Shown one piece after another: positions 1 to 10,011 of a DNA stretch of 10,011 nt. The notes under the pieces were generated by a model. That model did no database searches. It was not told where the DNA came from and saw nothing but the letters and a program-made list of their open reading frames with translations. Made by a program: the position numbers and the translations under genes. The DNA is from a virus. Taxonomy: Duplodnaviria; Heunggongvirae; Uroviricota; Caudoviricetes. How positions within the stretch are numbered: position 1 is the stretch's first letter; every line of letters starts with the position of its first letter. The stretch is from positions 1-10,011 of the IMG/VR virus record IMGVR_UViG_2802429253_000016. One strand, written 5' to 3'.

Positions 1-582
1 TTAAACTCTGCGCTGAAATTTCTTTTTTTCATTGGAGCACCTGTGTTGTTCTGAGGTGAGCATATCACCTCTGTTCAGGTGGCCAAATTCAGTGTGCCAC
101 TTCAGATTGAACGCAGCAGCAAGACGGCTGGCGGTATAGTTAATCCCCTCGTTGCGTGCTTCCGCACGTACTTCAGCCAGGAAAGCATCGGTGGCTGGGG
201 TTTGCGGCATCCTTCCGTCTATTGCGCAGATATACGCATCAGATAGTTCATCCTGCTCGCCATCAAACACGTAGCAACTCTGTACGATAAATTTATTCAG
301 CCCCGCATTCTCCGCCGCAAGCGCAGCAAGATTAGTCTCCAGCTCTGCAATGCGTTTGCTTTGGGCTTCCCGTTCATCCAGCAGTGCCAGCACGGTAGCC
401 GGATTGGCTGCTGCTATGAATCGCTTATTGGCGCGATTATCTGGTCCTGAGCATGATGCTATGTAGTAATTTGCGTTCAGTCCGGCATCAGCAATTACCC
501 CATAGTAATCATCAGAACACCATTCGCCAGGGGTTGCATTTTCTGCCGCCATTCGCAGTGCCTGGTAATTAATGTTGCTCAC
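1..582 (-). CDS. Phage accessory protein, tentatively ead/Ea22-like (coiled-coil middle, conserved NATPGEW and NPATVLALLD segments)
   Basis: Six-frame ORF 1..609. The preferred start is GTG at 580-582, preceded by AGGAGG (589-594) with a 6-nt spacer; the ATG at 609 has no SD. Stop TAA at 1-3. Family assignment is from memory and unverified. Confidence 0.55.
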   Translation of the reverse strand: MSNINYQALRMAAENATPGEWCSDDYYGVIADAGLNANYYIASCSGPDNRANKRFIAAANPATVLALLDEREAQSKRIAELETNLAALAAENAGLNKFIVQSCYVFDGEQDELSDAYICAIDGRMPQTPATDAFLAEVRAEARNEGINYTASRLAAAFNLKWHTEFGHLNRGDMLTSEQHRCSNEKKKFQRRV

Positions 583-874
583 TGGTTGCCTCCTGAAAAA
601 TAACTGCATGCCCCAGCTTCTCCGCCAGTGCCAGTTCTGCCTTAGCGCCTGCTGACCGCTGCCAGCCTTTCAGCATGTAAATCGCATCCACACAACGAAT
701 CATTGCCATGCAAATATCCATGTAGTGTGGCTGTGTCAGTCCGTCCGGAAGTACTGCCGGACTTAAGACGGTATGCCCTTCCCGTTTCAGTTCCTCTTCC
801 GCCTTGTGGAACGCCTCACGGTTGAAATTTTTATACCCGGTCATCGGACCAGCGATATAAACCCTCACCCTCAC
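569..874 (-). CDS. DUF4406-like / nucleoside 2-deoxyribosyltransferase-like small protein (101 aa)
   Basis: ORF with GTG start at 872-874 overlapping the upstream stop (GTGA), AGGAGG at 883-888. N-terminal YIAGPMTG motif and a GW-x-S-x-GA segment are typical of the DUF4406/deoxyribosyltransferase-like fold. Assignment from memory. Confidence 0.6.
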   Translation of the reverse strand: MRVRVYIAGPMTGYKNFNREAFHKAEEELKREGHTVLSPAVLPDGLTQPHYMDICMAMIRCVDAIYMLKGWQRSAGAKAELALAEKLGHAVIFQEATSEQH

Positions 875-1287
875 GCCATCACCTCCTGAAAATTACCCTG
901 ATAAAACGCCAGCACACGCTGCATAACCTTGCTTTTCCGGCACTCGCGACAGATTATGTTCTGACGTCTGTCGTAGCGGCGTATCTCTCCATCTGGTAAT
1001 GAATAAATCAGGTCAGGATCGCTCTTTTTCTTCACCGCCGCTTTCGACATCTTTTCGATGGCTTTTATCCAGTCCTTACGCGCCTGCGCTGAAGGGAATA
1101 TTCCATACCCTGAACCATATACAACACCACTGGCTACCAGCTCTTTCGTCAGAACTTCTATCAGATGTCTCGTCGCCCCAATTTCATTTTCCAGTTGTTT
1201 ACGCGTTTTCCGACCATCTCTGCGTACCAGTTCCACAATGCGCGCCTTCACTTCTTCCCGCTGTTCGGAAGTAAAAACTTTTGCCAC
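871..1287 (-). CDS. Hypothetical phage protein (138 aa), basic, possible N-terminal winged-helix and a C-terminal CxxC
   Basis: ORF starting with GTG (1285-1287) 4 nt after AGGAGG (1292-1297). It is co-oriented and tightly packed with the replication gene; no family recognised. Confidence 0.55.
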   Translation of the reverse strand: MAKVFTSEQREEVKARIVELVRRDGRKTRKQLENEIGATRHLIEVLTKELVASGVVYGSGYGIFPSAQARKDWIKAIEKMSKAAVKKKSDPDLIYSLPDGEIRRYDRRQNIICRECRKSKVMQRVLAFYQGNFQEVMA

Positions 1288-1327
1288 AAGTCCTCCTGAA
1301 AATTACCTCATGATCTGAAATAAACAC

Positions 1328-2275
1328 TTACCCCCTGAAGCCCGGCGGAATTTCGGTATCCGGTTCAGAAATGTGATTCACGCAACGCTGTACAGGCGAA
1401 CGCCCCAGACGAATAACCAGCTCATCCCATTTTTCGCGAAGCTTTGACGGGCTCATGACGTTTTTTACCCAGAATGGATCCCGCTGTACCCGACCAAACA
1501 TTTCGCAAATTTGTCTGTGAGTTCTGCCATCCAGCATCCGCATTGTGCGCACATCATTGGCCCATGCAGTCCAGTTGGGTTCTTTCGGTCGCATGATTTC
1601 GCCATCATCGCTGGCAGCCTGCTCGTAAAGACTCACGATTCGTCCCCAGATCCACTGCGCACACGCTAAATCTTCCTGGCTACCCCACTGGCGTTTTTTC
1701 GCACTGAACACAACCGCGTCAGGGTGTCGGGTTAAAAAATCCTGTTCAGCCGTCTGCGAGTCCGGTTGCGAAGCTTCCGGACGAAAAGATCTTTTATCTG
1801 ACGGATCAGGTTTTAATACTGACGGATCGGGGCCAACCATCGCCCCCCTATCCGGCTGTTTTTTATCAATGGTTGATCCATCAAAATTTGAGGGGTCAAC
1901 CGTTGAGGGGGCAATATTTGACGGGTCATTTTTTGCCTGGCTAATTTTTCTTTTCGGTTTATATGCCTCACGCGCCGCCGCTGCTGCTGCTTCTAGTTTT
2001 TCCACATTAAGACGGTAGATATTGCTTACATTACGCCCACCGACCTTACGTTCCTCCTTCGTCAGCCAGCCGTTCTTTTCCAGTTCCGCTATCGCAGCTT
2101 TAACCGTTGATTCACTCTTTGCCCCAATCTGACGACGAATGGTCTCCACTGCAGGCCATGACACACCTTCGTCATTGCTGTAATCTGCAAGGCGAGCCAT
2201 TACTGCCACCCTGGATAAGATCATGCCGGTGAAGGCGCACCCTTCCCAGACAAGACCATGAAGCTTGCTGCTCAT
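1328..2275 (-). CDS. Replication initiation protein: N-terminal winged-helix domain, iteron-encoded linker, C-terminal DnaT-like (primosomal protein I-like) domain
   Basis: 315-aa ORF with ATG at 2275 and GGAG SD. The C-terminus ...VNHISEPDTEIPPGFRG matches the DnaT C-terminal signature as recalled. The internal iteron cluster plus AT-rich tract is the same arrangement as ori inside lambda O. The N-terminal wHTH resembles phage replication proteins. Confidence 0.85.
   Translation of the reverse strand: MSSKLHGLVWEGCAFTGMILSRVAVMARLADYSNDEGVSWPAVETIRRQIGAKSESTVKAAIAELEKNGWLTKEERKVGGRNVSNIYRLNVEKLEAAAAAAREAYKPKRKISQAKNDPSNIAPSTVDPSNFDGSTIDKKQPDRGAMVGPDPSVLKPDPSDKRSFRPEASQPDSQTAEQDFLTRHPDAVVFSAKKRQWGSQEDLACAQWIWGRIVSLYEQAASDDGEIMRPKEPNWTAWANDVRTMRMLDGRTHRQICEMFGRVQRDPFWVKNVMSPSKLREKWDELVIRLGRSPVQRCVNHISEPDTEIPPGFRG
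1796..1966. repeat. Origin-like iteron cluster (TGACGGATC-type 9-mers) followed by an AT-rich tract, embedded in the initiator gene
   Basis: Direct copies TGACGGATC (1799-1807, 1820-1828), TGAGGGGTC (1889-1897), TGAGGGGGC (1904-1912), TGACGGGTC (1919-1927), with 15-bp phasing for the last three, plus an inverted copy (1875-1883, gatccatca). Followed by ttttttgcctggctaatttttcttttcggtttatat (1928-1964). They encode the repeated DPS motifs in the protein linker. Confidence 0.7.
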
Positions 2276-2298
2276 AAAAAACTCCGAACACCGTGCTT

Positions 2299-2724
2299 TT
2301 AGTGCATCACCAGGGCATTTCCCGCCGGACCACCACGATTCATCTGATTGAAACCAGCGATCGCCACTGCGACAAAATCATCAGCGTCTCTCACCAGTCG
2401 TTCCCGCGTCTCCACCAGCTCCCGAAAATAGGCTGAACTGTGGCTGCGCATTCGGGCCACCAGCAGAGGTGGCATTGCTTTTTCGATCGCTGGTAACAAC
2501 GCCTGAATTTTTTTAACCGCATCAGGGGTGTCTTTCTCCACCCAGCGGAAAATCTTCTGAGTATTGCGAGCCAGGGCTTCTGGGTGTGAATCGTCGTACA
2601 GTTCCGGAAACGTCATACCCAGTTCAAAATAAGCCCGGGTTATTTCAGCTGCCGGAACTTTTTCTCCGTCCGGATGCGCCCAGGCATTCATCGCCATGCG
2701 GATGTGCTCATGCTTGATTTTCAT
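2299..2724 (-). CDS. YdaT-like protein (CII-type regulator analogue), 141 aa
   Basis: ORF immediately downstream of the cro-like gene with a 4-nt ATGA start/stop overlap at 2721-2724, the position occupied by cII in lambda and by ydaT in Rac-type prophages. Family call from memory. Confidence 0.65.
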   Translation of the reverse strand: MKIKHEHIRMAMNAWAHPDGEKVPAAEITRAYFELGMTFPELYDDSHPEALARNTQKIFRWVEKDTPDAVKKIQALLPAIEKAMPPLLVARMRSHSSAYFRELVETRERLVRDADDFVAVAIAGFNQMNRGGPAGNALVMH

Positions 2725-2948
2725 GAATCACTCTTCCTTTCGCTCTGAGTGGTATCCTTCTTTTTGTAAAGCTCTGGGTTCAAAGATAATTTTCCCTTGG
2801 AGTATGCAGCAGCTTCCGCAGCTCTCCCTTTCGGAACTATTTCACCGGGGCGCTTACGCCACATGTAAATAGCTTCGCGGGTTATCCCATAAAAATCAGC
2901 GACCCTCTGAACAGAGCCAAAAAACTGAACAAGTTCATCAACTCGCAT
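2721..2948 (-). CDS. Cro/DicC/YdaS-like small HTH regulator (75 aa)
   Basis: First gene of the leftward operon, divergent from the repressor. SD AGGAGG (2954-2959) 5 nt before ATG at 2948. Small, basic, HTH-like N-terminus. Confidence 0.75.
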   Translation of the reverse strand: MRVDELVQFFGSVQRVADFYGITREAIYMWRKRPGEIVPKGRAAEAAAYSKGKLSLNPELYKKKDTTQSERKSDS

Positions 2949-3044
2949 TTCACCCTCCTAAAATCTAAGTATTTTTAGATTACAGGATAATTTTTTTTAG
3001 GTCAATGCGATCTAAAATAATTTATATTCAACTCGCGGGAGAAA
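2949..3044. promoter_or_regulatory. Divergent immunity control region (oR-like) with 18-bp palindromic operators and pR/pRM-type promoters
   Basis: Operator ATCTAAGTATTTTTAGAT (2963-2980, perfect 6-6-6 palindrome) and ATCTAAAATAATTTATAT (3010-3027). On the minus strand TTGACC (3005-3000), a 17-nt spacer and TAATCT (2982-2977) form a candidate pR overlapping the first operator. TATATT at 3023-3028 is a candidate pRM -10. Confidence 0.6.
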
Positions 3045-3692
3045 ATGATGGAAAGCCTTGGCATCAGGCTTAAGAAACTCAGAAAAGATAAGGGACTCAC
3101 CCAAGTAGAACTGGGTAAGCTTTCAGGCGTGACTGGGGTTACTATAGGGTACTGGGAGAAAGATCTAAACGAACCCGGCAGCAAAGCTCTAAGTAAGTTA
3201 GCCCAAGCATTAGGAACTACTGAGTCCTATCTCCTGTATGGAGTATCGTCTCCTGAACTATCTTTTGTGCAGAGCAATCCAGGCACCAAGATCCCCTACT
3301 TTTCGTGGGGTGACGCGATTTCTTTCCTAATCTTAGAAGGAGAGAAAACAATGGGAAATGTCGATAGGATCACCACATTCTTTGATGTAGTGGAAGGTGA
3401 TTTTGCCGTTTCAATGCCTGATGACACTATGCATAACCCCTCAGGGTCGCCAAGTATCCCAGTTGGTGCCACTGTGATCCTAAGACCAGGAGAAAGTTAT
3501 AAAAATGGCAGTATCGTCGCTGTAATAGTTCCAGATCCTCTTACAAATGAACCGTCTATGACTATAAAAAAATTAGTTATTGATGGAAAACTTGTGTATT
3601 TAAGCCCTCTCAATCCGCGCTATCAATCATCCTTGCTTACGCCAGAGTGTAAAATTGTTGCCGTAGCAAAAGGTGTACAGTTCAACCTATAA
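3045..3692 (+). CDS. CI-type phage repressor: N-terminal XRE-family HTH plus C-terminal S24 (LexA-like) autopeptidase domain
   Basis: 215-aa ORF. N-terminus has an HTH (LTQVELGKLSGVTGVTIGYWE). C-terminus has VSM (Ser nucleophile context) and TIKKLVIDGKLVYLSPLNP, aligning with lambda CI GNSM and FKKLIRDSGQVFLQPLNP (Ser/Lys dyad). The second ATG at 3048 has better SD spacing (GGGAG 3037-3041). Confidence 0.9.
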   Translation: MMESLGIRLKKLRKDKGLTQVELGKLSGVTGVTIGYWEKDLNEPGSKALSKLAQALGTTESYLLYGVSSPELSFVQSNPGTKIPYFSWGDAISFLILEGEKTMGNVDRITTFFDVVEGDFAVSMPDDTMHNPSGSPSIPVGATVILRPGESYKNGSIVAVIVPDPLTNEPSMTIKKLVIDGKLVYLSPLNPRYQSSLLTPECKIVAVAKGVQFNL

Positions 3693-3713
3693 CCCTGCCA
3701 TGTTCTTGAACTT

Positions 3714-3740
3714 AAGGTCGGTTATGCCGACCTTTTTTTT
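3714..3740 (+). terminator. Rho-independent terminator downstream of the repressor gene
   Basis: Stem AAGGTCGG (3714-3721), loop TTATG, CCGACCTT (3727-3734), followed by TTTTTT (3735-3740). Confidence 0.75.
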
Positions 3741-3759
3741 AAATTAATTTAGATTCCTC

Positions 3760-3788
3760 TTGACTATAAAACTAAATACTTTTAGATT
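3760..3788 (+). promoter_or_regulatory. pL-like promoter with overlapping operator (oL-like)
   Basis: TTGACT (3760-3765), 17-nt spacer, TAGATT (3783-3788). Operator AACTAAATACTTTTAGAT (3770-3787) has the same 6-6-6 architecture as the oR sites. Confidence 0.5.
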
Positions 3789-3970
3789 TATTGCATGCCA
3801 ACCCATCCCGTCCCCACAGAATGCAGGGCAATACTTCGAGTTACCAGGCAGTGGTCAGGGGTTAAGTAGCCAGCCCGAGGCGTAAGAACATGACGGCAGG
3901 GTTCAACTTTAATAACTATGCAGCAGGTTTTTGTTCCGCTACCCCGGCGTTAAGGGGAAATGAGGTCAAC

Positions 3971-4126
3971 ATGGATACTATCGATCTTGGCAACAACGAA
4001 TCTCTGGTGTACGGCGTGTTTCCCAACCAGGACGGCACATTCACCGCGATGACGTATACCAAAAGCAAAACGTTTAAAACCGAAAATGGTGCCCGTCGCT
4101 GGCTGGAAAGAAACTCAGGTGAGTGA
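3971..4126 (+). CDS. ydfA: YdfA-like small protein (DUF1391), 51 aa
   Basis: Internal ATG at 3971 with GAGG (3962-3965) 5 nt upstream. The product MDTIDLGNNESLVYGVFPNQDGTFTAMTYTKSKTFKTENGARRWLERNSGE matches the Qin prophage YdfA as recalled. The longer ORF from 3890 lacks an SD. Confidence 0.75.
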   Translation: MDTIDLGNNESLVYGVFPNQDGTFTAMTYTKSKTFKTENGARRWLERNSGE

Positions 4127-4127
4127 T

Positions 4128-4256
4128 ATGGATTTCGACACAATCATGGAAAAGGCTTACGAAGAATACTTCGAAGGCCTTGCCGAAGGCGAAGAAGCTC
4201 TCAGCTTCAGTGAGTTTAAACAGGCGCTTTCCAGTTCGGCAAAATCTAACGGCTGA
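4128..4256 (+). CDS. ydfB: YdfB-like small protein, 42 aa (not in the supplied ORF track)
   Basis: ATG at 4128 two nt after the ydfA stop. It encodes MDFDTIMEKAYEEYFEGLAEGEEALSFSEFKQALSSSAKSNG, with stop TGA at 4254-4256. Length and position match Qin ydfB as recalled. Confidence 0.65.
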   Translation: MDFDTIMEKAYEEYFEGLAEGEEALSFSEFKQALSSSAKSNG

Positions 4257-4285
4257 TAAGCGAAACAGCACCGCGAGGAATCAGT

Positions 4286-4501
4286 ATGCAGAAACCAGAA
4301 CCCATCATCATCGCACCAGGCTATACCGATGATGAAATTTACGAATGGATGTGCGGGAAGATACGCGCCATTAATGACCTGAAGCAGGCTGCTGACTATA
4401 AAGAGCGCCTCTCTAAAGAACTGGCGTCAGCGGAGCAGGATATTACCACTCTGGCAAAAAGCGCGGCATTAAACGTTTCACGAGTGAATGAAAACTACTG
4501 A
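4286..4501 (+). CDS. ydfC: YdfC-like small protein, 71 aa
   Basis: ATG at 4286 with GAGGAA (4275-4280) 5 nt upstream; third gene of the dicB-type operon. Confidence 0.8.
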   Translation: MQKPEPIIIAPGYTDDEIYEWMCGKIRAINDLKQAADYKERLSKELASAEQDITTLAKSAALNVSRVNENY

Positions 4502-4516
4502 CTGATGAGGTTGACG

Positions 4517-4846
4517 ATGGAATTTAAAGATTTACCAATACCATTCCAGGAAATGGCAGCGAATATAGTTCGTTCCCAACTGGCGACTCTTGACCTGAGT
4601 ACCGTAGAAAAAGAAACCATCGATAATATATCCGGTAACGTGCGTCGCGCCTTTATCGGGTTGTACGAAGAGAAGCAACTCTCTGATAACCAGGATTTGC
4701 ATGAAAAATACTTCCTGGAATTAATGAACATCATTGATAAGGGGTTTGGCTTGTTAATGAAAAAGAAAGGGATTCGAATAGAACCCCTTGAAAATTACTT
4801 TGCAACAAAAAGCATTAATTCTTTTGATTCAAAACAAGAGAATTAA
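4517..4846 (+). CDS. Hypothetical protein (109 aa) in an AT-rich insertion; function unknown
   Basis: ATG at 4517 with GAGG (4507-4510) and a 6-nt spacer (the ORF track starts at 4505). Markedly AT-rich relative to flanking DNA. Its 3' end overlaps the convergent ORF by 32 nt. Confidence 0.5.
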   Translation: MEFKDLPIPFQEMAANIVRSQLATLDLSTVEKETIDNISGNVRRAFIGLYEEKQLSDNQDLHEKYFLELMNIIDKGFGLLMKKKGIRIEPLENYFATKSINSFDSKQEN

Positions 4847-5090
4847 TAACAGATTTAACATGCTCTTTCTCATGATTGAAGCTCTCATGATTGAAAGCGC
4901 CGGGTTGAAGCGAGTCGATATAATCAACAAGACTCTGTCGTACGACTTCATTTTTATCCATAACAGATGCAAGAAATGAAATTGCTAAAAGAGTTATATC
5001 ACTACGCGCCGCAGCATGCTGCAATGCTTTATCAAAATTATTAATCTGGCGTATCAGGGAGTTAATGATTTCATTATTTTCAGTCGACAT
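4815..5090 (-). CDS. Hypothetical protein (91 aa), antisense-oriented within the pL operon; function unknown
   Basis: ATG at 5088-5090 preceded by AGGAGGG (5096-5102) with a 5-nt spacer; this RBS context (AGGAGGGTGAAATG) is identical to that of the cro-like gene. The longer ORF to 5168 has no SD. AT-rich. Confidence 0.5.
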   Translation of the reverse strand: MSTENNEIINSLIRQINNFDKALQHAAARSDITLLAISFLASVMDKNEVVRQSLVDYIDSLQPGAFNHESFNHEKEHVKSVINSLVLNQKN

Positions 5091-5421
5091 TTCACCCTCC
5101 TGAGGGTTGGTGATTAAGGAGTTCTCCACGGGTGAGGTGGAGTGCGTGCGCCGGACACGGGTGAGCATCCGGCACTGACAGTTTACTGAAAGGATATATC
5201 CCTGAAAAGTCAGGGCATAACGCGAAAGCGCACGGCGAAGTTCTTCTGTCTATACGGTGTCGTTAAATTTAATTCGACCGTGCGCTTCCGGTTGTGGCAC
5301 TCCGCGAAATGGCGCGGCGGTAAGTATGGCGGGGTTATTCCTTCCCCGTTGAGGACACCGGGTTGTCAGGTTGACCATACGCTTAAGTGACACCCCCGCT
5401 GCAACGCCCTCTGTTATCAAT

Positions 5422-5477
5422 TTTCTGGTGACGTTTGGCGGCATCTGTTTGCCCATGAACTGATGCCCGCCCTTTTT
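5422..5477 (+). ncRNA. dicF: DicF-like small regulatory RNA with intrinsic terminator
   Basis: The 5' segment TTTCTGGTGACGTTTGGCGG matches the DicF 5' end as recalled. Hairpin GGCGGCATC (5437-5445) / GATGCCCGCC (5462-5471), then CTTTTT. It sits between ydfC and dicB, as in the Qin dicB operon. Confidence 0.7.
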
Positions 5478-5479
5478 AA

Positions 5480-5631
5480 AGTGAATTTTGTGATGCGGTG
5501 AATGCGGCTCAGCGCACGCGGAACAGTTAAAACCAAAAACAGTGTTATGGGTGGATTCTCTGTATCCGGCGTTAATTGTTAACTGGTTAACGTCACCTGG
5601 AGGCACCAGGCACCGCATCACAAAATTCATT
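5480..5631 (+). promoter_or_regulatory. Long-range RNA stem (about 20 bp) enclosing about 110 nt between DicF and the dicB RBS; candidate RNase III processing or translational control structure
   Basis: 5482-5500 tgaattttgtgatgcggtg is the exact reverse complement of 5611-5629 caccgcatcacaaaattca, extendable by a G-U and an A-U pair. The 3' arm ends 5 nt before the dicB SD (GAGGA, 5635-5639). Confidence 0.5.
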
Positions 5632-5646
5632 GTTGAGGACGCGATA

Positions 5647-5835
5647 ATGGAAACGTTATTACCAAACGTTAATACGTCTGAAGGTTGTTTTGAAATTGGT
5701 GTCAGAATCAGTAACTCTGCATTTACTGAAGATGCCATTAACAAGAGAAAACACGAACGGGAGTTATTAAATAAAATATGCATTCTTTCAATGCTGGCAC
5801 GTTTACGCCCGATGCAAAAAGGATGCTGGCAATGA
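5647..5835 (+). CDS. dicB: DicB cell-division inhibitor (62 aa)
   Basis: ATG at 5647 with GAGGA 7 nt upstream. The product METLLPNVNTSEGCFEIGV...NKICILSMLARLRPMQKGCWQ matches DicB as recalled. The ORF-track N-terminal extension from 5542 is non-coding leader. Confidence 0.85.
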   Translation: METLLPNVNTSEGCFEIGVRISNSAFTEDAINKRKHERELLNKICILSMLARLRPMQKGCWQ

Positions 5836-6035
5836 ATACAGCAATTGCTCTCACTCTGACAGTTTTTCTTAATACGGGCGAGCCTGTTGACCTGGTTATT
5901 GACATTTACGGTTCAATGAAAGAATGCACGGCTGCCGCAGCGGAACAGAAAATTCCCGGTAACTGTTATCCGGTTGATAAAGTTATTCATATGGACAATA
6001 ACGAAATCCCGGCAGGACTTAAAACAGCACCGTAA
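5832..6035 (+). CDS. ydfD: YdfD-like small protein (67 aa; prophage lysis-associated protein in K-12)
   Basis: ATG at 5832 overlaps the dicB stop (ATGA). The product MNTAIALTLTVFLNTGEPVDLVIDIYGSMKEC... matches YdfD as recalled. Confidence 0.7.
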   Translation: MNTAIALTLTVFLNTGEPVDLVIDIYGSMKECTAAAAEQKIPGNCYPVDKVIHMDNNEIPAGLKTAP

Positions 6036-6115
6036 TTAATATCCGGTTTCATTTTTATATGCCAGCAATGGCAGGGATTTGTTCACCCTTAAATCTGTAA
6101 TGAGGTTAAAACAAA

Positions 6116-8590
6116 ATGAGTAAAGTCTTTATTTGCGCCGCCATTCCGGACGAACAGGCAACAGCAGAAGGCGCTAAACCTGTGGCCACTGCCATTGAAG
6201 CAGGCGACGAACGCCGGGCAAGAGCCAAATTTAGCTGGTTATTTCTGGAACAATACCCGGAAACTCAGGACTGTGCTTATAAATTTCTTGTCTGCGAGGA
6301 TAAACCCGGCATGGCCCGCCCTGCTCTCGATTCCTGGGATTCCGAATATATGCAGGAAAACCGCTGGAATGAGGAGTCGGCTTCCTTTGTTCCGGTCGAC
6401 CCTGAACCGGATACAGAAACTGTTAACTTTAATCAGTTATCTGACGACAAGCGGGCTGCTGTCCTTGTCAGGTTCGGTACACATGAAAACATCACCGTGG
6501 ATATGGTCATCAATGCAAGCGGGCTTCTCGGCGATGACGAGATGACGACTTTTGATGGACACCTCACTGAAGCAGTTATCCGGACCAGAGAAATTAACGC
6601 CATGTATCCTGAGCGTCAGACTGAGTACATCAACGATGCCAGACGTGATTTAAAACCAACAGCCAAATGGCCCGATGTTCAGGCGTATTTTCTCGAACGT
6701 AAAAAACGCATGGAAAAGGAGCGCAAAGAAGGTGGAGCATATAATTCCGTCGTCGATCTTGCCCGCGCCAGAGTCAACCGGCAAGGCACTGAAAACTCTG
6801 CAGGAAAAACTGACTCCGTAACTGCTGTCATTCGTCGCGAATACAAGCAGACATGGAAAACACTGGATGGCGAACTGGCCTACGCTCTCTGGCCTGGTGA
6901 TGTGGATGCCGGAAACGTTAACGGCAGCATCCATCGCTGGGCAAAAAATGAAGTTATCGACAACGACCGCGAAGACTGGAAGCGTATCTCGGCATCAATG
7001 CGCAAACAGCCTGATGCCCTTCGCTACGACCGCCAGACTATTTTTGGCCTTGTCCGTGAACGTCCGATCGACATTCACAAAGACCCTGTGGCACTGAACA
7101 AATACATTACTGAATACCTGACTACAAAGGGCGTGTTTGAAGATGAAGGAAGAAATCAGAGCGCAACTGATACTCTCTCGTCGCCAGTACCAGAAACTGA
7201 TGCAGTGGAAACGGCAATTCCGGACAACGAAAAAACCGAATGCAAAGTGGAAGTCGAACCATCTGTAGAGCGTGAGGGGCCATTCTACTTCCTCTTCACC
7301 GACAAGGATGGCGAAAAATACGGTCGCGCAAACAAACTTTCTGGTCTGAATAAGGCGCTGGCTGCCGGGGCTACTGAAATCACGAAAGAAGAATATTTTG
7401 CCCGCAAAAACGGCACATACTCAGGTTCACAACAAAATACTGGTGCATCTGACACGACCGCACAACCAGAGCCGGTAAAAGTTACCGCTGACGAAGTAAA
7501 CAAAATTATGCAGGCAGTCAGCCAGCCTGACGCCAATCAGTTGCTTGCTGCCTCTCGCGGAGAATTTGTTGCAGGGATTAGCGACCCGAATGATCCGAAA
7601 TGGGTGAAGGGGATTGAAACCCGCGATTCTGTGTACCAGAACCAGCAAGAAACGGAACAGAACGACCAGAAAGCGGAACAAAACAGCCAAAATGCGTTAC
7701 AAAACGAGCCAGAAACGAAACAATCCGAACCAGTAGCGCAACAAGAACCAGAAAAAACCTGCACCGCCTGCGGTCAGAGCGGTGGCGGCAACTGCCCTGA
7801 TTGTGGCGCGGTGATGGGCAACGCAACATATCAGGAAACATTCGATGAAGAGAATCAGGTTGAAGTTCAGGAAAATGATCCGGAGGAAATGGAAGGCGCT
7901 GAACATCCACACAAGGGGGACACTAGCGGCGCTCAGGACCACGCCAGCGATAGTGAAACTGGTGAGGCGGCAGATCCCTTAATTAATGTGAATGGTCATC
8001 ATAAAAGCACATCCACCAGTAGAGTGTGGTACCACCTGATGATCGACCTTGAAACGATGGGTAAAAAAAGTAATGCCCCCATCGTGGTTATTGGTGCTGT
8101 GTTCTTCGATCCGCAGACCGGGGAAATCGGGCCAACATTTTATATCGTTATCAGCCTGGTTGACGCTATGGACACGGGTGCTGTACCTGATGGTTCCACC
8201 ATCGAATGGTGGCTTGCTCAGTCCAGCGAAGCCAGATCTGCAATTTTAGTTGATCAGGTAAAACTGGTTGACGCTCTTATTCAATTTCGGGAATTCATCA
8301 ATGAGTACTCGAATGAAAAATTCGTTCAGGTATGGGGCAATGGTGCAACTTTCGACAACACTATTTTACGAACCTCGTACGAACGCCTGAACATCCCCTG
8401 CCCGTGGCGTTACTACAACGATCGCGATGTACGTACAATCGTTGAACTGGGAAAAACTATCGACTTCGATGCCAGAACAGTTATTCCATTTGAAGGCGTG
8501 CGCCACCATGCGCTGGATGATGCCCGTCACCAGGCGAAATACGTTTCAGCAATCTGGCAAAAACTGATCCCGAATCAGGCTGATTTTTAA
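6116..8590 (+). CDS. Large RecE/YdfE-like protein (824 aa) with a Q/E-rich low-complexity linker, a CxxC-x10-CxxC knuckle and a C-terminal DEDDh (DnaQ-like) 3'-5' exonuclease domain
   Basis: Single uninterrupted ORF. C-terminal motifs: Exo I MIDLETMG, Exo II WGNGATFDNTIL, Exo III RHHALDDARHQAKY. The N-terminus MSKVFICAAIPDE... resembles Qin YdfE, and the middle LLAASRGEF...CTACGQSGGGNCPDCGAVMG segment resembles RecE, both as recalled. It sits where exo/recE sits in lambdoid phages. Confidence 0.85.
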   Translation: MSKVFICAAIPDEQATAEGAKPVATAIEAGDERRARAKFSWLFLEQYPETQDCAYKFLVCEDKPGMARPALDSWDSEYMQENRWNEESASFVPVDPEPDTETVNFNQLSDDKRAAVLVRFGTHENITVDMVINASGLLGDDEMTTFDGHLTEAVIRTREINAMYPERQTEYINDARRDLKPTAKWPDVQAYFLERKKRMEKERKEGGAYNSVVDLARARVNRQGTENSAGKTDSVTAVIRREYKQTWKTLDGELAYALWPGDVDAGNVNGSIHRWAKNEVIDNDREDWKRISASMRKQPDALRYDRQTIFGLVRERPIDIHKDPVALNKYITEYLTTKGVFEDEGRNQSATDTLSSPVPETDAVETAIPDNEKTECKVEVEPSVEREGPFYFLFTDKDGEKYGRANKLSGLNKALAAGATEITKEEYFARKNGTYSGSQQNTGASDTTAQPEPVKVTADEVNKIMQAVSQPDANQLLAASRGEFVAGISDPNDPKWVKGIETRDSVYQNQQETEQNDQKAEQNSQNALQNEPETKQSEPVAQQEPEKTCTACGQSGGGNCPDCGAVMGNATYQETFDEENQVEVQENDPEEMEGAEHPHKGDTSGAQDHASDSETGEAADPLINVNGHHKSTSTSRVWYHLMIDLETMGKKSNAPIVVIGAVFFDPQTGEIGPTFYIVISLVDAMDTGAVPDGSTIEWWLAQSSEARSAILVDQVKLVDALIQFREFINEYSNEKFVQVWGNGATFDNTILRTSYERLNIPCPWRYYNDRDVRTIVELGKTIDFDARTVIPFEGVRHHALDDARHQAKYVSAIWQKLIPNQADF

Positions 8591-8654
8591 TGTTCAACCC
8601 CGGTCGTCGCCCACCAGCTATAGTGGCGGCGACCATGATTAGCGAACGACGCTC

Positions 8655-8903
8655 ATGGCAAGACTTATTCTGCTCACTGAGTGGGCAAAAGAGGAATTCA
8701 GTGAACCGGTCCCTACTCCGGGTACGTTAAGTAAATACGCTAAAGCCGGAATGATATTTCCTCTCCCCAAAAAAGTAGGAAGGCACTGGCGAGTGGATCC
8801 ACGCGCTCGCTTTGTCGGAATGGTAAACAAGCCTGAGGTGATCGCCACAGATCACCCTGCTTTGAAGAGGATACTGGAAGATGGCGCGCCCGCGAAAATA
8901 TAA
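8655..8903 (+). CDS. xis: Excisionase (Xis-like, 82 aa)
   Basis: Small basic protein immediately upstream of, and overlapping, int by 23 nt. LILLTEWAKEE...IFPLPKKVGRHWRV parallels lambda Xis LTLQEWNARQ...IFPPPVKDGREY. Confidence 0.8.
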   Translation: MARLILLTEWAKEEFSEPVPTPGTLSKYAKAGMIFPLPKKVGRHWRVDPRARFVGMVNKPEVIATDHPALKRILEDGAPAKI

Positions 8904-10011
8904 AACCGATGTTCCGGGTTTATCTCCGTATTTTGACAAAAGAAATAACAAAGTTTACTGGCGTTACAGGCATCCCATCACAGGTAAAAATCATGGACTC
9001 GGCAGTATTGACCAGAAACTGGCGGAAACCATTGCAGCAGAAGCGAACAGCCGTCTTGCCAGACAAAAAATGGAGCAAATGCTCAGTCTGCAGGAGAAAA
9101 TTATTAGTGATACCGGCGGCGCATCAACCGTTTCCATTTTTCTGAATAATTACAGAAAAATTCAACAGGAAAGATATGAGAACGGAGAAATCAAGCTCAG
9201 CACGCTGAAACAAAAAGCGGCTCCTCTCAGGGTGTTTGATGAACGTTTTGGAGCCAGGCCGCTAGATGCCATAACCGTAAAAGATGTGGTATCGGTGCTG
9301 GAAGAATACAAGGCAAAGGGACATAACAGAATGGGACAAATTTTCAGGAAGGTATTGATCGATGTTTTCCGGGAGGCTCAACAAACGGGTGATGTCCCGC
9401 CAGGCTTTAACCCGGCTGAATCGGCAAAAAAACCGCAAGTGCGGATATCAAGACAGCGACTGACTTTTGATGAGTGGATGATGATTTATAACGCAGCGGA
9501 AAAGGATGGTTACTTTTTACAGCGCGGCATGCTGCTGGCACTGATGACGGGCCAGCGTCTTTCGGATATTTGCAAAATGCAGTTTTCGGATATCCGGGAT
9601 GGTTACCTTCATGTCGAACAGCAAAAAACAGGAGCCCGGATAGCCATTCCTCTGGCTCTGCGTTGCGACAAATTAAATCTTACCCTGGGTGACGTGGTGT
9701 CATCCTGTCGTGATTACATCCTTAGTCCGTGGTTATTGCACCATCATCACGCTAAGGGGATGGGTAAGCGCGGCGGGATGGTTAAACCAGCAACGTTAAC
9801 AGTCGCATTTAAAAAAGCCCGGGATTCTGTGGATTACAACTGGCGTGCTAATGGCACGCCACCCTCTTTCCATGAGCAAAGATCTTTATCAGAACGATTG
9901 TTCAGAGAACAGGGAATTGATACCAAAATTTTGCTGGGCCATTCGAATCAAAAAATGACCGATATTTACAACGACGCACGCGGTAAAGAGTGGAAAAAAC
10001 TGGTTGTTTGA
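8881..10011 (+). CDS. int: Lambda-family tyrosine integrase (376 aa), apparently intact
   Basis: Collinear with lambda Int. N-terminal arm-binding region (YFDKRNNKVYWRYRHPITGK), TGQRLSDI (Arg), HEQRSLSERLF (His, Arg), LLGHSNQKMTDIY (His, Tyr nucleophile), and a C-terminal GKEWKK tail. Stop TGA at 10009-10011. Confidence 0.95.
   Translation: MARPRKYKTDVPGLSPYFDKRNNKVYWRYRHPITGKNHGLGSIDQKLAETIAAEANSRLARQKMEQMLSLQEKIISDTGGASTVSIFLNNYRKIQQERYENGEIKLSTLKQKAAPLRVFDERFGARPLDAITVKDVVSVLEEYKAKGHNRMGQIFRKVLIDVFREAQQTGDVPPGFNPAESAKKPQVRISRQRLTFDEWMMIYNAAEKDGYFLQRGMLLALMTGQRLSDICKMQFSDIRDGYLHVEQQKTGARIAIPLALRCDKLNLTLGDVVSSCRDYILSPWLLHHHHAKGMGKRGGMVKPATLTVAFKKARDSVDYNWRANGTPPSFHEQRSLSERLFREQGIDTKILLGHSNQKMTDIYNDARGKEWKKLVV

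Follow-up and report, generated by a model that had tools for sequence, protein, structure and literature searches.

Does a cluster of short repeats in the middle of a phage replication gene serve the protein that it encodes, or the DNA in which it lies? The question is raised by a 10,011-nucleotide stretch from a tailed virus (class Caudoviricetes; IMG/VR record IMGVR_UViG_2802429253_000016, positions 1 to 10,011), referred to below as the window. A first-pass annotation, made from the letters alone, had described there five direct 9-mer iterons and one inverted copy followed by AT-rich DNA, and had taken them for a lambda-type origin within an initiator gene. The repeat region (1796-1966) sits inside a 315-codon open reading frame (ORF) on the minus strand (1328-2275), and the module around it, with immunity and replication functions, is that of a Rac-like lambdoid prophage. 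We propose that positions 1776-1929, possibly extending to 1966, are the replication origin of this prophage, embedded in the linker-coding part of its own initiator gene. Judging from sequence comparisons, we would give this reading a probability of roughly 0.7, because a motif of period 15 is clustered here, the gene around it encodes an O-like initiator, the DNA itself is constrained, and the origins of lambda and phi80 occupy the same place.

Two classes of repeat in an initiator gene

The clustering of the 9-mers is genuine. Exact matches to TGASGGRTC number four in the window (1799, 1820, 1889 and 1919, all on the plus strand) against 0.24 expected, and none of 200 shuffled sequences reached this number. 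A search tolerating one mismatch added a fifth direct copy, at 1904 (TGAGGGGGC), and an inverted one, at 1875-1883 (TGATGGATC on the minus strand), six further such matches being scattered over the remaining window. Tandem Repeats Finder delimited a period-15 array at 1881-1928, and the start-to-start spacings are 15, 15 and 15 bp (1919/1904/1889/1874), then 54 and finally 21 bp.

The copies described by the first-pass annotation thus exist, but they do not form a single set. The six 9-mers represent two classes of element: class A, 12-bp near-dyads at a 15-bp period, and class B, two separate and far more conserved GATCCGTCAG boxes (Table 1). The frame of class A is the near-palindrome TTGA-N4-TCAA, which is exact in units 3 and 4 and off by one base in units 1 and 2. 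The phasing at 15 bp was correctly recognized; the number of phased units is four rather than three, and the inverted copy is among them. It is a regular, in-phase unit and not an odd one out; relatives use both orientations. Similarly, the mixed 21/15-bp spacing, previously set against the supposedly regular iterons of lambda, reflects the presence of two classes, and the lambda iterons are themselves spaced at 20, 24 and 23 bp. In close relatives, the equivalent of the spacer between the two classes contains an inverted pair, GGGGTCAA-TGG-TTGACCCC.

The ORF matched PHROG 391 ('replication initiation O-like') over its full length (residues 1-315, E 4.3e-113), and 990 homologues of this initiator type were found at E <= 1e-5. 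The sole Pfam match at E <= 0.01 was HTH_36 (PF13730) at residues 25-71. In the AlphaFold2 model, the N-domain consists of helices (3-67), a beta-hairpin wing (71-89) and a further helix (91-104), with mean predicted local distance difference test (pLDDT) scores of 71-87 in 10-residue blocks. Residues 109-197, situated between the folded domains, nearly all score below 50, and a helical domain (200-290) is followed by a disordered tail. The repeats encode residues 116-160 and hence fall within the predicted disordered linker, where their translation yields the DPS-like tripeptides already noticed in the first reading (DPSNI APSTV DPSNF DGSTI ... DPSVLKP DPSDKR).

A Foldseek comparison of the N-domain with PDB returned MarR/PadR/ArsR-type winged-helix regulators as top matches, none at E <= 0.001, and no solved initiator homologue; BLASTP found no N-terminal similarity to lambda O or phi80 gp15. 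The C-domain is homologous to both, with 38% identity to lambda O over 128 residues (E 1e-26) and 36% identity to phi80 gp15 (E 2e-26). Furthermore, the C-terminal tail resembles the last 20 residues of Escherichia coli DnaT (phmmer against PDB DnaT chains, E 2.5e-4 to 6e-4 with a 37-residue query; matches in further searches were weaker), which probably explains why homologues are annotated as 'primosomal protein I'. The preprimosome paper examined states no role for the C-terminal tail of DnaT itself.

Constraint on the repeat DNA among homologous genes

For comparison, 82 homologous genes from Enterobacterales were assembled, 80 of them from a one-genome-per-species collection (N-domain identity 54-82%), and all 82 linker DNAs are distinct. 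E. coli alleles and genes of phages SfII, Kp4866-6, phiP27, Kp4871-1, LLS and YeP3 were gathered in addition. The homologous genes turned out to conserve the DNA sequence of the repeats, beyond the peptide, across about 80 species. In all 82 genes, the winged-helix domain is immediately followed by 15-bp units built on a TGA-N4-TCA core. The serine codon of the linker motif D/E-x-S is TCA in 406 of 455 instances (89%), whereas serine elsewhere is encoded by TCA in 201 of 1392 (14%). The base preceding the D/E codon is T in 327 of the 455 instances (119 expected), even though the residue to which it belongs varies (S, F, I, Y, V, N).

Codon choice is tighter still in the class B block, where GAT (78/78), CCG (75/78), TCA (68/68) and GTA (72/74) are near-fixed. 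At the position of box 1, GATCC was present in 78 of 78 homologues. A second class B box was likewise found in 78/78, with GATC in 71, and the two boxes are spaced by 24 bp in 67 genes and by 21 bp in three. As a control, the major codon of conserved N-domain residues averages 0.52. Since the codons of the linker and class B block are near-fixed while synonymous sites of the N-domain are randomised, codon usage indicates that the repeat DNA is under selection beyond its coding requirement. Divergence among E. coli alleles (N-domain 12.6%, linker 7.0%, C-domain 8.7%) offers too little contrast to show constraint.

These data bear directly on the possibility that the repeats are purely a feature of the protein, i.e. 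a slippage-prone, low-complexity linker of D-P-S-like pentapeptides expanded in tandem, with no role of the DNA in cis. Such an explanation would account for repeats that lie in frame within a predicted disordered linker, for the recurrence of DxS pentapeptides in the family, and for copy numbers that change in steps of five residues. Indeed, E. coli alleles of 305, 310, 315 and 320 residues carry two, three, four and five class A units, respectively, Edwardsiella anguillarum has about ten, and alleles of 303 and 308 residues are without one 21-bp class B unit, so that copy number changes in whole units. The codons, however, are fixed beyond what the protein needs, and the third base of the codon preceding each motif is kept as T although its amino acid varies. 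Moreover, reverse-complement units encoding DPS and EGS share one register. Taken together, we consider a role confined to the protein very improbable.

The two orientations are best seen in the closest subfamily (E. coli, Erwinia, Mixta, Morganella and Edwardsiella), where 30 units of the TTGACCCCTCAA type (C-rich core) and 16 of its reverse complement, the TTGAGGGGTCAA type (G-rich core), occur in one register while encoding the unrelated tripeptides DPS and EGS. A double-stranded DNA site therefore explains this pattern more readily than would a motif in the peptide or an element in the RNA. As for RNA, a structure in the messenger RNA, or programmed pausing at the domain boundary, could in principle impose a similar constraint, and the coding-strand RNA of 1776-1966 does fold somewhat better than its shuffled versions (z -2.1; 7 of 200 shuffles as good). 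But this modest z is what short palindromes would give, individual hairpin stems have just 3-4 bp, no Rfam family was matched in the whole window, and units placed in either orientation preserve the site in the duplex and not the RNA sequence. Constraint at the RNA level is the explanation to which we would give least credence. A terminator-like hairpin at 1922-1939 was dismissed as a by-product of class A unit 1 plus a T-run, and a promoter and terminator scan of 1200-3200 revealed no enrichment.

The array as a candidate origin

The first-pass annotation had placed the unwinding element in about 37 bp of AT-rich DNA after the repeats. The tract exists (1929-1966), but it has merely 68.4% AT, which 5.4% of the 38-mers of the window equal or exceed, and as the gene is on the minus strand, transcription reaches it before the repeats and not after them. 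In favour of the layout as originally drawn, with five direct and one inverted iterons and unwinding at 1929-1966, the coding strand of the tract is rich in A and its translation in Lys, as in the AT tract of lambda; the tract directly abuts unit 1 and is shared by the E. coli alleles compared. Its duplex-stability z (1.74) is also close to that of the rival tract at 1783-1822 (1.94), a value of 2.06 being found at 1994-2033 of the same gene, of which the tract is thus not the least stable part. However, its promoter-proximal position is opposite to that in lambda and phi80. Relatives from Edwardsiella and Erwinia (L015, L016, L017) have GC-rich DNA in its place, and genes of the SfII type are without the tract. 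On the other side of the array, 78 genes show conserved A-rich DNA that corresponds to the edge of the phi80 origin. The layout as first drawn is hence unlikely, and its tract appears to be a poor candidate for the unwinding element.

It is more likely, on this sequence evidence, that unwinding would take place on the promoter-distal side, at about 1776-1828, because A-rich DNA is conserved there and the junction resembles that of phi80, while 1929-1966 is not conserved. Each GATCCGTCAG box is followed by A-rich DNA, and the whole stretch closes with ATAAAAGATCTTTTCGTCCGGA. The junction TAAAAGATCTTTTCGTCCGGAA aligned with the end of the phi80 A-rich tract with a local score of 28, compared to 14.2 +/- 2.0 for shuffled sequences (0/500 shuffles as high); local similarity between lambda and the family block was not significant (100/500 and 22/500 shuffles). 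The segment 1783-1822 has 67.5% AT (77.5% in lambda), is interrupted by the two class B boxes, and is parted from class A by the 29-bp GC-rich spacer.

The locus contains four GATC (Dam) sites within 91 bp (1788-1878), three of them within 41 bp, and two of the clustered sites belong to the family-invariant boxes. GATC is not enriched over the whole window (34 sites, 39 expected); what stands out is just the local clustering, together with its conservation among family members. GATC in an opening region resembles P1 oriR and oriC.

In several respects the arrangement follows lambda. There, too, the origin lies within the linker-coding middle of the initiator gene O, the iterons possess internal dyad symmetry and double as codons, and A-rich, Lys-coding DNA is adjacent; the C-domains are homologous as described above, and the gene order cro, cII-like gene, initiator is the same. 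What the first-pass annotation called a lambda-type origin within the O gene therefore holds with respect to the identity of the initiator, its C-domain and the position in the linker, but not with respect to the side of the AT-rich tract. Lambda differs in having four 18-bp iterons followed by 40 bp of 77.5% AT, whereas the present locus has 12-bp dyads at 15 bp in either orientation, two GATCCGTCAG boxes as an extra class and an AT content that does not exceed 68%. Its initiator carries an N-domain of the HTH_36 type instead of Phage_rep_O, and no P gene comes after it.

Likeness to phi80 is equally apparent. Gene 15 of this phage contains in-frame repeats (21 bp, seven residues) after its DNA-binding domain, the C-domain of its product is homologous to ours, and TAAAAGATCTTCGTCCGAGAA, with which its A-rich tract closes, is nearly identical to window positions 1776-1797. 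On the other hand, the four annotated gp15 sites of phi80 are 16-bp palindromes (TTCCCGAAAACGGGAA) every 21 bp, a lambda-P-like gene 14 lies downstream, and GATCCGTCAG boxes are not present.

Among other lambdoid phages, it is the rule for O-like proteins to recognise iterons of their own type within the genes that encode them, as in lambda, P22 and phage L (PMC8022706), and the same rule applies to Shiga toxin (Stx) phages, with iterons within the O-like gene (PMC7466680). Phage L contains six imprecise copies of a short 11-bp repeat (PMC8022706). The origins predicted in gene 18 of P22 and phage L share with our locus the presence of an own type of repeat inside an own O-like gene; they are set apart, by description, by other repeat and initiator sequences and by a DnaB-type helicase, gp12. 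Two more distant O-like genes could be added. In the winged-helix O-like gene of Stx2a_F403, three copies of GGGGTGGGGCAGGAGCTGCCC, which encode GGAGAA repeats, come right after the DNA-binding domain, and in that of Pectobacterium phage ZF40 two 44-nt repeats are found at the same spot, with CTGTGC/GCACAG dyads discernible by eye. Both agree with the rule that O-like proteins bind their own iterons.

Plasmid iteron origins (the pSC101, R6K, P1 and RK2 class) likewise combine a winged-helix initiator, an array of short repeats in variable copy number and adjacent A/T-rich DNA. Their iterons are usually direct repeats of 17-22 bp, placed roughly in helical phase outside the rep gene. The present array does not conform to this type, having a 15-bp period, mixed orientation and repeats inside the coding sequence.

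Conservation of DNA does not by itself specify an origin. The region might instead be another kind of cis element, for example sites for autoregulation or copy-number control, sites for a different protein (a DUF977/Ren-like binder, or SeqA at GATC), or a joint for the exchange of modules. Mosaic initiators (P0020, P0030) point in the last direction: a window-type N-domain and linker are joined to an SfII-type C-domain, the reverse combination being found as well, and the joint falls just after the class B boxes (about 1745-1797), where CGTCCGGACGCTTCGCAACCGGAC is common to both types. The three GATC sites within 41 bp, the GATCC invariant in 78/78 genes and the lack of a strongly AT-rich tract would also be compatible with a non-origin element. 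Nevertheless, the region corresponds in position and architecture to the origins of lambda and phi80, the initiators of these phages having homologous C-domains, and a recombination joint would leave a periodic dyad array with variable copy number unexplained. No other repeat cluster or candidate origin was seen in the replication module, and the lone DnaA-box-like match, TTTTCCACA at 1998-2006 on the plus strand, about 30 bp upstream (in coding sense) of the AT-rich tract, is at chance level, one match being expected in the window. A cis element other than an origin is in our view rather improbable, though less so than either a protein-only or an RNA-level explanation.

Several points weigh against the assignment of an origin to 1776-1929. 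A period of 15 bp corresponds to 1.4 helical turns, as opposed to 20-24 bp in lambda and 21 bp in phi80. The N-domain is not matched by Pfam Phage_rep_O at E <= 0.01, and no tract in this locus reaches the 77.5% AT over 40 bp that is seen in lambda, the best being 67-68%. As for the comparative evidence, the TGA-N4-TCA core is common to N-domain subfamilies that are 55-80% identical, which is conservation without covariation within the family. In addition, N-domain and repeats are adjacent, so that their linkage is trivial, and units within one gene are non-independent owing to tandem duplication. In the literature searched, no published binding, unwinding or replication assay was found for this initiator family. 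Finally, the only small circular record with the module (NZ_CP148542.1) has a frameshifted initiator gene, one C being missing in a C-run, and was given no weight.

Provided that the region is the origin, we infer as follows how the initiator binds, where the DNA opens and by which route the helicase is recruited. Rightward early transcription (cro, the YdaT/cII-like gene and the initiator gene; minus strand) would produce the initiator and at the same time pass through the origin. The N-domain of the initiator, probably as a dimer, would bind the near-dyads (TTGA-N4-TCAA) that recur every 15 bp, and perhaps also the two related GATCCGTCAG boxes. The resulting nucleoprotein complex might destabilise the adjacent A/T-rich DNA, likeliest that of 1776-1828, which is promoter-distal as in lambda and phi80. 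The lambda-O-like C-domain, possibly together with the DnaT-like tail, would then bring in the host DnaB helicase.

The design of such an origin is familiar, while a published description of this repeat type was not found; the literature on the repeat sequences and on origins of SfII/SfIV-type phages yielded nothing relevant. A more far-reaching, and doubtful, proposal is that Rac-like prophages, SfII/SfIV, LLS and many prophages of Enterobacterales share a distinct and widespread class of lambdoid origin. It would be characterised by 12-bp dyads placed every 15 bp, out of helical phase and in either orientation, by an unwinding region around two invariant Dam-methylatable GATCCGTCAG boxes, and by an initiator that is often without a phage loader and includes a copy of the 20 C-terminal residues of host DnaT. 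Dam/SeqA would then control firing, and loading would proceed via the host primosome or via DnaC contacts by DnaT mimicry.

Lambda, phi80, P22 and phage L have already established the principle itself, and the present locus would be an added member rather than a new concept. Its additions are the 12-bp dyads at 15 bp in either orientation, the conserved pair of GATC boxes and the relocated candidate unwinding region. The initiator allele is common in E. coli: at least 80% of the gene is present in 1515 of 5426 complete E. coli genomes, O157:H7 included, and relatives are carried by serotype-converting Shigella phages. Knowledge of a defined origin would aid in predicting which 'defective' prophages still replicate after induction, and vectors and incompatibility typing would gain a compact origin-plus-initiator cassette with a new specificity. 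Such an origin also represents a clean case of overlapping protein and DNA codes, measurable by codon statistics alone.

Neighbouring genes and related records

The features of the locus are listed in Table 1. Downstream of the DUF977/Ren-like gene there are DUF4406 and Ead/Ea22 genes, and the far side of the module contains a RecE-like exonuclease and a lambda-type integrase. The stretch right after the initiator gene (window 1-1327) contains no loader gene of the lambda-P, DnaC or DnaB type, the genes just named being present instead. Phages SfII and LLS show the same loader-less arrangement downstream of the initiator. In the O157:H7 allele, a DnaC-like ATP-binding protein is inserted there.

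Table 1. Positions of the repeats, initiator domains and neighbouring genes (window coordinates unless a locus is named; repeat sequences in coding sense)
Feature	Position	Strand	Remarks
O-like replication initiator gene, 315 residues	1328-2275	-	winged-helix N-domain, disordered linker, lambda-O-like C-domain, DnaT-like tail; PHROG 391, Pfam HTH_36, AlphaFold2 layout
N-terminal winged-helix DNA-binding domain (residues 1-104)	1964-2275	-	presumed repeat-binding module; AlphaFold2
C-domain (residues 161-288)	1412-1795	-	homologous to lambda O and phi80 gp15; BLASTP
C-terminal tail RCVNHISEPDTEIPPGFRG (residues 295-315)	1331-1393	-	resembles last 20 residues of E. coli DnaT
'AT-rich tract', A-rich on coding strand, encodes YKPKRKISQAKN	1929-1966		promoter-proximal to repeats; weak unwinding candidate
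Class A unit 1, ATGACCCGTCAA	1918-1929		first of four at 15-bp period
Class A unit 2, TTGCCCCCTCAA	1903-1914		one mismatch to the 9-mer
Class A unit 3, TTGACCCCTCAA	1888-1899		exact TTGA-N4-TCAA
Class A unit 4, TTGATGGATCAA	1873-1884		'inverted copy'; same frame and phase, G-type core (versus C-type)
Degenerate fifth in-phase unit, TTGATAAAAAAC	1858-1869		only left half-site kept
GC-rich spacer between class A and class B	1829-1857		29 bp, 27.6% AT
Class B box 1, GATCCGTCAG	1819-1828		holds Dam site
Class B box 2, GATCCGTCAG	1798-1807		Dam site present; spaced 21 bp from box 1
A-rich run and junction, ATAAAAGATCTTTTCGTCCGGA	1776-1797		third GATC; matches right edge of phi80 origin A-rich tract
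DUF977/Ren-like gene	871-1287	-	
YdaT/cII-like gene	2299-2724	-	
Cro	2721-2948	-	
S24-type CI repressor	3045-3692	+	
Repeats in distant O-like genes	L093 1736-1801; L094 1723-1832		

In the Rac prophage of E. coli K-12, YdaU occupies the same gene position as the initiator. Because it is annotated as a DUF1376-domain protein and not as a helix-turn-helix protein, it was set aside, and the literature on oriJ is not transferable to the present locus.

In the early-left region, between the DUF1391 and DUF1482 genes, the stretch 4286-5783 is AT-rich and contains ORFs of 71-177 residues on both strands, with no Pfam match. It may represent moron or defence cargo.

Two E. coli records with members of the initiator family are unusual. 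NZ_CP148542.1 (L096) is a circular 'plasmid' record of 15,977 bp for which no plasmid replicon is listed, this module providing the only replication genes. Its content is that of a prophage fragment (CI, Cro, this initiator type, a DnaC-like gene, Q and lysis genes), and the record may be an artefact of sequencing or assembly. In E. coli ECDA1023 (L087), an ORF of 455 residues begins with the first ~79 residues of the initiator family and continues with unrelated sequence. It has the appearance of a deletion fusion within a defective prophage, and may correspond to ymfN of e14.

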